In this document: positions 40,601-42,494 of the stretch, piece by piece
How the letters are laid out: each line of letters opens with the position of its first letter
Numbering within the stretch: position 1 is the stretch's first letter
NCBI RefSeq assembly: GCF_052425735.1
Contig: NC_135769.1
Location: forward strand, 11,842,001-11,906,000
Source of the DNA: Oculina patagonica
Taxonomy: Eukaryota
Direction: 5' to 3'
DNA length: 64,000 nucleotides
Notes under the pieces: generated by a model
Databases searched by the model: none
Told to the model about the DNA's origin: nothing
What the model saw: the letters and a program-made list of their open reading frames with translations, nothing else
Program-made: the position numbers and the translations under genes

Positions 40601-42494
40601 ACAACCGGTGTCTGGGAGGCCATGGGTTCGATTCCCGTCGAGGACTCAGATTTTTTCTTTGTCCCACGCTCGTGTCATGTTGAATAATTCCTTCACTATT
40701 TATCACCGAGCTTGAAATTTACCATCTTTATTATTTACTACACATTTGATGATTTCGACATTGCTGATCCTAGCAGTATGCAGGACGCGTGTCACATATC
40801 AACCTAGTAAATGGCCCAGCTCACAATGAGTCTCTCGTAGCTCAGTTGGTTAGAGCTCCCAACCGGTATCTGGGAGGCCATGGGTTCGATTCCCGTCGGG
40901 GACTCAGATTTTTTGTTTGTCCCACGCTCGTGTCATGTTGAATAATTCCTTCACTAAATTGGAAACTAATGGGATAGATTTGATGAATCACAAGTGTGTG
41001 TACTTTTTTTTTAGAATCCGTGGTACAAATTACAAGAGTCCTCATGGTATTCCACTTGATCTGCTGGACCGACTGTTGATTATCTCTACATCGCCTTACC
41101 AAGAGAAAGATCTGCGACAAATTCTCACTATACGGTAACGTAACAGCGACTTCTCTGCTTGCAAATCTCGCGTTCTTCTTTTGGTTTAAAGCATAACCTT
41201 ACTGTTGGAGCACTACGTTGAATTTGCTTTTTAATTGTTGTAATATAAGTCTTATAAACTTTAAAAGTGTCGAAAACATAGGAAACTTATTTCAGTTTCC
41301 GAAAAAAAAAATTCGTCAAGTGCTTGTCCCGTTTACTACAGGCAACCGTGTGACGTCATATGATCCAAAATGGCAACATGGGGATTCAATCTTGGATGCT
41401 TTTGCTATACATGTAAATGTGCCAACATTGGCAAAAGTTGTAATCTGTCTGCAGCCTTTGTGTCGCATTTGTTAACCTGAAAAGAATTTTTGTATTATTT
41501 TTTTCATGTTATTCATCAATGCCCTTCTCTAATTATGGAAAATATTATTTATCAACTAGTGCGAAGGACAACGTAGCTGCTACAATGCTGTTGCAATTTT
41601 TTGTTTTAACTGTAAAATAACTTATCCGTGTTGATCAGTTCGCTTTGCTATGACAGCACAATGTTATAACACACAAATATGTGACTGAGCCCGAGGGATT
41701 AATTGTGTTGCAGATGTGAAGAGGAGGACGTGGAGATGTCAGAGGATGCTATATTCTTGCTAACAAAAATTGCTCAGGAAACATCGCTAAGATACTCCAT
41801 TCAGCTAATAACAGCCTCAAGCCTTGTGTGCCGGAAAAGAAAGGTAAGTTTGTATTTTGTACGGCTATTTTTTTCAGTGCCCAATTGCCACAAGGATTTA
41901 AATGAAATTTTGTTGACATCAAAGTTGGTTCGCAGTCTCAAAAGAGTGGCATTTCACCACACTGAAGTTTCGCAATTGTGTATAATTTTCGAAACTTGGT
42001 CACTTAATTTTTGTGATTTGGGTTTAAAACATGTCATTTAATTTTACTTGACATGTGTTGCCCGCATTAAGTTCGCGTCATCAAACGTTCGCTTTTTAAA
42101 AGTAATAGAATTATCGCGCATAAACGCGAAAATGTGGTGTTCCCAATTCTTCCTGTGATAAGATTAAGGTTGAGAAAGACGTGAATCGTGGGACAAGTCC
42201 CCGACGGAAATATGATTTTTCATATACCGATCGGATGGTCATGAACAGGATAATGGATCTCAGAGATGTTCGCCAACAAGGAGTTTCTCTGCAGACTGTA
42301 TCCAACGTGTTTTTATTTTCTCTTAGGGAACCGAGGTAAATGTTGATGACATTAAGCGGGTGTATTCACTATTCCTGGATGAAGCTCGTTCCAGCCAGTT
42401 TCTTAAAGAATACCAAACAGAATTCATGTTCCACGTGGACGAGTCGCCCGAGCCTGCGTCTGAAGCCATGGAGACTGAGGCCGAAACTGCTTGA
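31636..42494 (+). CDS. RUVBL2: RuvB-like 2 (reptin) AAA+ ATPase, 15 coding exons
   Basis: [40 protein letters not shown]... Walker A GQPGTGKT (about 36380), Walker B LFIDEVH (about 39803), [26 protein letters not shown]. Last exon 42327-42494 reads [19 protein letters not shown]...ETA*. Confidence 0.98.
32195..32787 (-). mobile_element. Penelope-like element 3' fragment (GIY-YIG endonuclease region), frameshifted
   Basis: The - strand reads [48 protein letters not shown], then [18 protein letters not shown] across indels. Confidence 0.85.
33004..33529. mobile_element. hAT-like MITE with CAGGG termini and 6-bp TSD CACATG
   Basis: CACATG|CAGGGTTGGAAATTA ... TAGTTTCCAACCCTG|CACATG, with internal CTCGCCC motifs. 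Confidence 0.85.
34673..35415. mobile_element. TA-flanked element with about 125-bp imperfect TIRs
   Basis: CTTTTGCCGTCCGCTTTGTGAAGTT...CCAACTTCGGCCCGA is mirrored by TCGGGCCGAAGTTGG...AACTTCACAAAGCGGGCGGCCAAAG. Confidence 0.85.
36570..37086. mobile_element. Eroded MITE with GAAATTAAYGC repeats
   Basis: ATAGGAAATTAATGCTT vs AAGCGTTAATTTCCTAT. The right end (ATAAGG|TA) resembles that of the 4495-4969 element. Confidence 0.6.
37288..37540. mobile_element. hAT-like MITE with 6-bp TSD (TCGACC/TTGACC)
   Basis: CAGGGCTGCAAATA ... TATTTGCAGCCCTG. Confidence 0.8.
40315..40479. mobile_element. hAT-like MITE with apparent 5-bp TSD (AAATG/AAACG)
   Basis: CAGGGCTGTGCTCT ... AGAGCACAGCTTTG. Confidence 0.65.
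40602..40956 (+). mobile_element. tRNA-core partial-tandem element (258-bp unit plus 97-bp overlap) in a RUVBL2 intron
   Basis: 40602-40698 is repeated 258 bp later. tRNA-like segment at 40830-40904 has an A box (TAGCTCAGTTGG) and B box (GGTTCGATTCC). Confidence 0.85.

Follow-up and report, generated by a model that had tools for sequence, protein, structure and literature searches.

A high-copy, non-coding tandem element of the coral Oculina patagonica inserts into the genome with the footprint of Penelope retroelements. Two copies of the element lie in the stretch of DNA analysed here (the window: 64,000 nucleotides, positions 11,842,001 to 11,906,000 of contig NC_135769.1, NCBI RefSeq assembly GCF_052425735.1; feature coordinates are those of the window), and its repeat unit includes an internal tRNA-like core. 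Judging from the comparison of genomic copies, the element is very probably mobilised by Penelope, and its template was probably a circular RNA. Our best reading is that the family is a Penelope-mobilised, ribozyme-free analogue of the retrozymes; that the Penelope reverse transcriptase (RT) copies a one-unit RNA circle made by the tRNA-splicing endonuclease (TSEN) and RtcB is a possibility that we place barely short of an even chance.

Insertion footprint and the Penelope connection

The starts and ends of genomic copies were plotted on the unit, as an earlier note on this DNA, made from the sequence alone, had suggested. Two partly overlapping samples were used: all 65 insertions that bear the 3' anchor within the initial 24.3 Mb of contig C1, and 78 insertions collected with a hairpin anchor; the 3'-anchored sample was assembled because the hairpin anchor lies upstream of the tRNA and is blind to copies resembling short interspersed elements (SINEs). 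In the 3'-anchored sample, 84 of 99 3' ends fall at two sites about 42 nt apart (85 of 110 in the hairpin-anchored sample), and the 105 5' ends are scattered, with 8 at the tRNA start compared to 8 expected and 4 at nt 38, the mark of a linear monomer template, compared to 4 expected. The structure is polar, with fixed 3' ends and random 5' ends, and the contention of the earlier note that the element is not a canonical SINE is borne out.

An arm longer than one unit is present in 38 of the 65 insertions, and arms reach 3.8 units in the hairpin-anchored sample. Inverted insertions make up 34 of the 65, with the 3' ends always facing outward and no case of the opposite sense; among the assignable pairs, one arm ends at site 1 and the other at site 2 in 22 of 23 (23 of 25 one-site-each pairs in the hairpin-anchored sample, p=1e-5). 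Target-site duplications (TSDs) of 7-15 bp flank 25 of the 65 insertions (17 of 34 inverted and 8 of 31 simple ones) and 32 of the 78 hairpin-anchored insertions, compared to 13 of 1152 in the mismatched-flank control; most are 10-15 bp long, with a mode of 13-14 bp. Members of families A and B end in neither poly(A) nor a repeat tail. In Penelope elements, two internal RT start sites define the tail, and both strands are cut and extended (PMC11167929); tandem and inverted Penelope copies carry the tail at one end only (PMC8557442).

The end maps contradict two explanations that dispense with Penelope. A tRNA-derived SINE of the ordinary kind, mobilised by a long interspersed element (LINE), with tandems arising later through DNA-level duplication or insertion into older copies, would agree with the intact A and B boxes, with TSD lengths that overlap those of LINEs, and with the sister family C, which ends at one (TTA)n-like site and has no inversions. 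For families A and B, however, the 5' ends at the tRNA start do not exceed expectation, there are two 3' sites, multi-unit arms are common, inverted copies are bounded by 3' ends on both outer sides, and tails are absent; we consider this explanation very improbable. Even less credible is an element propagated at the DNA level with no RNA intermediate, be it a miniature inverted-repeat transposable element (MITE), a Helitron derivative or a dispersed satellite. Such an element could account for the existence of tandem and inverted arrangements, but not for the polar structure, the variable length of the TSDs, the simple copies without terminal inverted repeats, or the covariation of RNA type, which includes G-U pairs.

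A Penelope fragment that the earlier note had reported at 32.2-32.8 kb is present (Table 1) and derives from an autonomous family that is young: a 48-aa query has 42 identical matches, including an 843-aa frame with an RT domain. The copies of this family have 18 long and 15 short ends; each of the 6 distinct inverted insertions combines the two types, and 5 of them are flanked by TSDs of 12-14 bp. We regard the autonomous family of this fragment as a candidate class of helper. Its tail holds a T-arm/B-box-like GGTTCAAACC between its two 3' sites (32172-32200 on the minus strand, and loci L233-L263). Other Penelope-type families in the genome, with minimal palindromic hammerheads (L264-L278), also pair a long and a short end in their inverted insertions.

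The tRNA mimic and the template of insertion

The tRNA-like core is internal to the unit, as previously noted: ARAGORN predicts a tRNA-Thr(GGT) at 40830-40905, and the Rfam tRNA model scores 39.4 bits for copy 1 and 33.1 bits for copy 2. A functional tRNA-Thr gene was considered and rejected, given C33 in place of U33, the A-C mismatch at 31:39 in 119 of 125 copies and the bulged extended acceptor stem. In 10 subfamily examples, 97.9% of the cells are paired in the tRNA shape, a value that 0 of 500 shuffles reach, with the caveat that kinship can exceed shuffles; pairs 27:43 and 30:40 of the anticodon stem change on both sides, in a compensatory manner. In every family, the T-run lies within a hairpin to which the 3' acceptor strand contributes (AACTCAGAA/TTCTGAGTT and AACTCGGAA/TTCCGAGTT in sister families). 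As modelled, this hairpin could form only after transcription has read through the T-run, which we infer to be part of the mechanism rather than an obstacle.

Within the palindromic tetramer at tRNA positions 32-35, C32 and G35 are invariant in 10 of 10 subfamily examples, and 33:34 is CG in 5, UA in 4 and AU in 1. Pairing of this tetramer with its counterpart in the adjoining unit is predicted, which would form a bulge-helix-bulge. In a two-unit transcript, the predicted 'intron' begins at nt 38 and ends at nt 37 of the following unit, a span of exactly one unit; its third-last base is G35 of unit 2, which would pair with C32 of unit 1. A C-G proximal pair (C32-G(-3)) is required for the formation of tRNA intronic circular RNAs (tricRNAs) in Drosophila (PMC6614914).

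The best-fitting mechanism, which we advance as a whole chain with some reserve and at slightly under even odds, is as follows. RNA polymerase III (Pol III) would start at one tRNA mimic, pass the first T-run and stop at the second. Pairing of the 5' half of unit 1 to its 3' counterpart in unit 2, with the bulge-helix-bulge formed by the palindromic loops, would result in a composite pre-tRNA with an 'intron' of exactly one unit. TSEN would cut near 37/38 on both strands and RtcB would close the 'intron', as it does for tricRNAs. Finally, a Penelope RT-endonuclease would nick both DNA strands 12-14 bp apart, prime at two internal sites and copy round the unit circle. The footprint of the last, Penelope step is seen in the insertions; the earlier steps are proposed from the structure of the mimic.

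Folding results bear on the central step. Unconstrained folding, run on the 8 families A, B1, B2, C, D, M1, M3 and M4, gave the crossed bulge-helix-bulge in A, B1, B2 and D, with central-helix probabilities of 0.68-0.86; the crossed-stem probability of the real loop is matched by 0-1 of 12 loop shuffles. When the tRNA arms are fixed, 8 of 10 families favour the crossed form, with a margin of 1.0-5.7 kcal/mol in energies that ignore tRNA tertiary contacts; loop shuffles then reach the real value in 1-8 of 40 cases in nine families and in 32 of 40 in C, the families being non-independent. The M2b consensus, a mixture of decayed copies, was left out of this analysis. Bulges of 3 nt are present in 8 of the 10 crossed folds. 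Two complete tRNA cores occur in one arm of 27 of the 78 insertions, neither of the window copies being among them, and the genome encodes both TSEN-type and RtcB genes.

An extra T at nt 38 (+T), beside the predicted cut-and-ligate junction, recurs in the family: it is found in 30 of 165 A/B copies and in 6 of 48 M3/M4 copies from other corals, and is the commonest insertion relative to the M3 consensus (8 of 66). On a 77-row tree, the 11 carriers require 8 changes, at least 4 of which are forced by well-supported branches; two other markers are similarly homoplasic. The +T divides otherwise identical units 2:2, and 45 of the 46 multi-unit arms are concordant for it across their units. Cuts between nt 37 and 38 in one unit and between nt 38 and 39 in the other would duplicate exactly nt 38 before rolling-circle copying.

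The arms also record the template. Subfamily markers are discordant within an arm in 17 of 459 comparisons (equal to the background of 3.9%), compared to 34.5% between insertions; between opposite arms, 19 of 437 are discordant (4.3%, with a background of 2.2%). The misaligned locus L231 was left out of these comparisons. The template repeats one haplotype along an arm, without a run-off point. This pattern fits a circle or a homogeneous multimer, the two alternatives named in the earlier note, with a monomer circle as the simple explanation; the repetition of one haplotype is observed, and the circle is a probable cause.

An alternative that involves Penelope but no circle is a linear multi-unit read-through RNA, transcribed by Pol III or Pol II, with the tRNA mimic as the promoter; the palindromic loop would then be ancestral, or else a kissing-loop signal that unites two templates for two primings. 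The Penelope footprint fits this scenario equally well, and an Anolis element uses unprocessed RNA in vitro and needs no hammerhead (PMC11167929). The arms with two complete tRNA cores, the small number of arms beyond two units (7 of 105) and the slight excess of discordance between opposite arms also speak for it. However, the 5' ends do not pile up at a transcript start, and arms of 3-4 units would be hard to obtain from a linear Pol III RNA because every read-through must pass a run of 6-7 T; furthermore, the recurrent +T and the fit of the palindrome to positions 32-35 are left unexplained. We rate the linear template as rather unlikely, though as the strongest of the alternatives.

A Penelope-mobilised circle could, in principle, be released by another cutter: an unrecognised ribozyme in the conserved block of stem and hairpin (40757-40793), RNase P or Z at the tRNA ends, or an anticodon-loop nuclease combined with RtcB. 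In favour of this possibility, at least 120 coral-metagenome loci of groups M1-M4 contain an exact copy of a 27-nt central block (the loci were selected on that block), and the stem that encloses the hairpin covaries: among 78 stem-intact rows (of 123 examined), the innermost GACAK/NTGTC pair is T-G in 44, G-C in 21, T-A in 12 and G-G in 1, so that the pair is formed in 77. The unit size, too, resembles that of coral retrozymes, 220-245 nt (PMC7229834). The search for a catalyst was, however, negative, in agreement with the statement of the earlier note that there is no canonical hammerhead core. No Rfam ribozyme was detected at E<=10 in 6 loci, where the matches were tRNA and chance hairpins only; CUGANGA is absent from both strands of 9 units; and a hammerhead pattern allowing at most one core change had 0 matches, with 2 of 3 positive controls found. 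Sketches of HDV-like, twister, pistol, hairpin and hatchet motifs yielded no conserved match. A variant hammerhead, TTGATGA...GACA (40747-40780), was rejected: its core, TGATGA, is not conserved across subfamilies, and it has no match at one core change or fewer. Joint action of RNase P and RNase Z would cut out the tRNA instead of yielding a full unit. Sister families contain two analogous short ACYGY-GYGAT-RCRGT hairpins per unit, which resemble binding sites, and the hairpin block is likely to be a protein-binding module rather than a catalyst. Release by such a cutter appears rather improbable. The evidence shifts the likely cutter away from an unrecognised ribozyme or RNase P/Z, as envisaged in the earlier note, and towards the tRNA-splicing endonuclease, which would act on a composite of two adjacent tRNA halves.

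Several observations count against a TSEN/RtcB-made circle copied by Penelope. No sequence is shared with autonomous Penelope elements in 50 loci (L233-L282, Penelope/Poseidon-type). The suggestion of the earlier note that this is a non-autonomous retroelement, possibly copied by a Penelope RT, is supported by the footprint, with the nearby family as no more than a candidate partner. Family C has 0 inverted insertions among 20 and a single TTA-rich 3' end in 15 of 20; it may be served by a different helper. The +T is found in 0 of 26 copies of family C and 0 of 5 copies of family F, and could come from RT stutter or template switching. An m1A58 modification footprint was not evident (2 of 208 copies). 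A homogeneous multimer would yield one haplotype per arm just as a circle does. The crossed form was missing from the unconstrained folds of M1, M3, M4 and C (4 of 8), and with fixed arms C and D2 favour local hairpins by 1.4 kcal/mol; shuffling the partner of the T-run hairpin caused no drop in acceptor cross-pairing. CTAG was possibly just inherited from a tRNA with an AGN anticodon, so that only two palindrome changes are informative. Position 31:39 is mismatched in A, C and M1-M4 and paired only in D/D2/E. The most stable models of A, B, C, M3 and M4 place the bulge at 37-39 on a 6-bp helix, a shift of one step from the canonical geometry, and over-paired helices are spliced less well (PMC6614914).

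Family size, relatives and the copies in the window

In the 529-Mb host genome, a 24-mer of the family has 1,285 exact matches and 2,135 at no more than 3 mismatches, and a 3' 22-mer has 2,290; the reversed-pattern controls for these motif counts gave 0. Units of subfamilies A, B1 and B2 are 258-262 bp long, and across families the units are non-coding, tandem and 241-281 nt long, within the 170-400-nt range of retrozymes. The same genome harbours sister families C (251 bp), D (281 bp), D2, E and F with a shared layout. Family C (L331-L348 and further loci of the genome) keeps the tRNA/hairpin layout and includes exact trimers and TSDs of about 12 bp. In families D and D2 (L295, L303, L352, L361), with units of 281 and about 299 bp, inverted insertions are present; the two 3' sites of D are merely some 16-20 nt apart, and of all the families, D and D2 come closest to the canonical bulge-helix-bulge in their anticodon arm (4-bp helix, 3-nt bulges). 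The search of viral and prokaryote sequence collections gave 0 matches, whereas sequencing runs labelled as coral metagenome contain parts of the window. The element sequence is present in RNA-like assemblies, whose contigs lack ends and strand and whose depth is not interpretable.

At four loci (L283, at about 51.93 Mb of contig C4, L168, L227 and L231), the tRNA core is wholly or partly missing. In L283, two similar motifs on either side of the core are brought together by the deletion, as would be expected from a template jump or from an ancient insertion of the tRNA with duplication; where a tRNA-less ancestral family was looked for, single deleted copies alone were seen (L267/L283). A tandem repeat of about 2.9 kb on C4, in two opposed arrays (L329 and L330, at 35.46 and 35.57 Mb), holds in each unit a truncated family-C copy with an expanded T-run. 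As a partner element, this repeat was rejected: it looks segmental because the non-element flanks around the truncated copy are identical.

The description of the window copies in the earlier note largely stands (Table 1). There are two near-identical copies, each consisting of one 258-bp unit and a partial repeat (97 and about 61 bp), that end at almost the same 3' point: copy 2 (319 bp, 52541-52223) is 95.3% identical to copy 1 and ends 2 nt before the end of the latter. The partial repeat of copy 1 is 96.9% identical to the full 258-bp unit. Both copies have the extended GAGT/ACTC stem followed by the T-run, as well as the TCCTAGCAGTATGCAGGA hairpin; the CCGG palindrome of copy 2 is at 52314-52311. 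Neither a TSD nor poly(A) was found at either window copy, as the note had it, but the lack of TSDs is not a trait of the family. Copy 1 itself would be unable to give a two-tRNA transcript because its partial unit has no A box.

Table 1. Features of the element and of the Penelope fragment in the window
Feature	Position	Strand	Remarks
Penelope fragment	32172-32798	-	5'-truncated, internally damaged; 11-bp TSD; from an active autonomous Penelope-type family
Insertion copy 1, family A	40602..40956	+	97-bp partial unit and full 258-bp unit; 5'-truncated; ends at 3' site 1
Partial first unit of copy 1	40602..40698	+	tRNA-like nt ~29-72, T-run hairpin, segment up to 3' site 1
'Tail' of ~42 nt	40699..40740	+	between the preferred 3' end sites: site 1 = unit 253-8, site 2 = unit 35-49
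Conserved stem GACAK/NTGTC	40757..40793	+	encloses hairpin TCCTAGCAGTATGCAGGA (40768-40785); no known ribozyme matched
tRNA-like core	40828..40905	+	A box 40838-40849 and B box ~40883-40893 intact; extended acceptor stem, 4-bp anticodon stem
Palindromic tetramer, tRNA positions 32-35	40863..40866	+	CCGG here; CTAG, CATG in relatives
tRNA position 38	40869	+	beside the predicted cut-and-ligate junction; recurrent +T duplication site in relatives
T-run hairpin	40899..40923	+	encloses T-run 40909-40914 and uses the 3' acceptor strand; GGGAC/GTCCC
Insertion copy 2	52223..52541	-	~61-bp partial unit and unit ending at site 1; T-arm degraded

The segments of about 42 nt that precede 3' sites 1 and 2 (40657-40698 and 40699-40740) are similar to each other and both end in a CATCTT/TTCTT...CTA-like pyrimidine tract; they may represent an old duplication of a priming module. 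Copy 1 sits in the sense orientation in an intron of a RUVBL/TIP49-type gene, where the exon at 41015-41134 matches TIP49 and is spanned by RNA-like contigs without the intron; a further multi-copy repeat, to which many contigs map, lies directly upstream in the same intron (40300-40500). Copy 2 is antisense in an intron of a MutS-family (MSH4-like) gene. Elsewhere in the window, there are palindromic MITE-like elements (1982-2223, 8950-9122, 9823-10012, 43442-43592, 48629-48742 and 62924-63111) and dispersed repeats (7310-7456/56885-57204, 7732-7958/22906-23129, 26263-26358/28135-28254 and 34670-35418). By eye, exons at 20654-22051 (+), 63589-63867 (+) and 3317-3850 (-) resemble what we take to be, respectively, isopentenyl-diphosphate isomerase, an ammonium transporter and an F5/8-type domain.

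Relation to known elements and implications

The closest analogues are the non-LTR (long terminal repeat) retrozymes of animals, which likewise consist of non-coding 170-400-nt units in partial or multiple tandems, occur in corals, are linked to Penelope and have an RtcB-closed circular RNA intermediate (PMC7229834; bioRxiv 10.64898/2026.07.22.740005); the circle of the coral element is a prediction. These retrozymes are defined in the same sources by a type I hammerhead in each unit, and no hammerhead was found in the coral element, which therefore does not belong among them. In the main text of the preprint (bioRxiv 10.64898/2026.07.22.740005), the word 'tRNA' never occurs. With Penelope-like elements and MRC1, the family shares partial tandems, an inverted 5'-truncated arm, a tail at one end and two internal 3' sites, its tail of about 42 nt being equivalent to the Penelope tail of 30-40 nt (PMC8557442; PMC11167929). 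MRC1-type elements, however, generally share 3' sequence with their autonomous elements (PMC8557442; PMC11167929), whereas the coral element has no sequence in common with the autonomous families examined, lacks an open reading frame (ORF) and contains an internal tRNA mimic. The length of its TSDs matches that of the Penelope family in its own genome.

The hammerhead repeats of Schistosoma are named SM-alpha. These SINE-like repeats resemble the coral element in their tandem units and internal Pol III promoter, with the upstream unit transcribing the next, but free their monomers by a hammerhead (PMC6765202); the coral family has none, and has instead a full covarying cloverleaf with a palindromic loop. 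The predicted route is akin to that of tricRNAs, in which TSEN and RtcB act on a motif of bulge-helix-bulge type with a C-G proximal pair and a 3-nt bulge, and the excised piece is circularised (PMC6614914). The intron of a tricRNA lies within one tRNA gene and is immobile (PMC6614914), whereas the coral 'intron' would be a circularly permuted whole unit from a tandem, with imperfect geometry (31:39). The TRIMp3 elements Helenus, Ajax and Cassandra are likewise non-autonomous, with an internal Pol III promoter derived from a small RNA and a non-LINE helper, but they are LTR elements with a primer-binding site, a polypurine tract and 4-5-bp TSDs (PMC10886601), unlike the coral element with its Penelope footprint, 7-15-bp TSDs, random 5' ends and inverted arms. 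SINE2 elements share the tRNA-derived A and B boxes, small size, lack of coding capacity and high copy number; in the coral element, the tRNA is not the 5' head, there are two internal 3' sites, and the copies run round the unit. The element is thus not a TRIMp3, not a SINE2 and not a hammerhead SINE of the Schistosoma type. None of the papers listed in the literature search describes the family or a TSEN-circularised retroelement, and the family is not described in passages of PMC12070523 and PMC5786205; Repbase, Dfam and supplements were outside this search and may catalogue the family, for example, as SINE2.

Many apparent tRNA-Thr genes or SINE2 copies of corals are, then, something else. 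Even without a circle, the family offers a young, ORF-free read-out of Penelope integration, with two internal priming sites, one per strand, 12-14 bp apart. More tentatively than for the mechanism in this genome, and at rather less than even odds, we propose that there are ribozyme-less selfish circular RNAs in animals, for which tandem tRNA mimics hijack TSEN/RtcB and which Penelope RTs reinsert, with the +T at nt 38 as a scar of mixed-register cutting. If the TSEN step holds, the mechanism would be categorically new. If this reading is true, the family would be an enzyme-dependent counterpart of the hammerhead retrozymes, with thousands of copies in coral genomes, and tRNA splicing by TSEN and RtcB, so far a housekeeping process that yields inert intron circles, would be a replication step of a mobile element.

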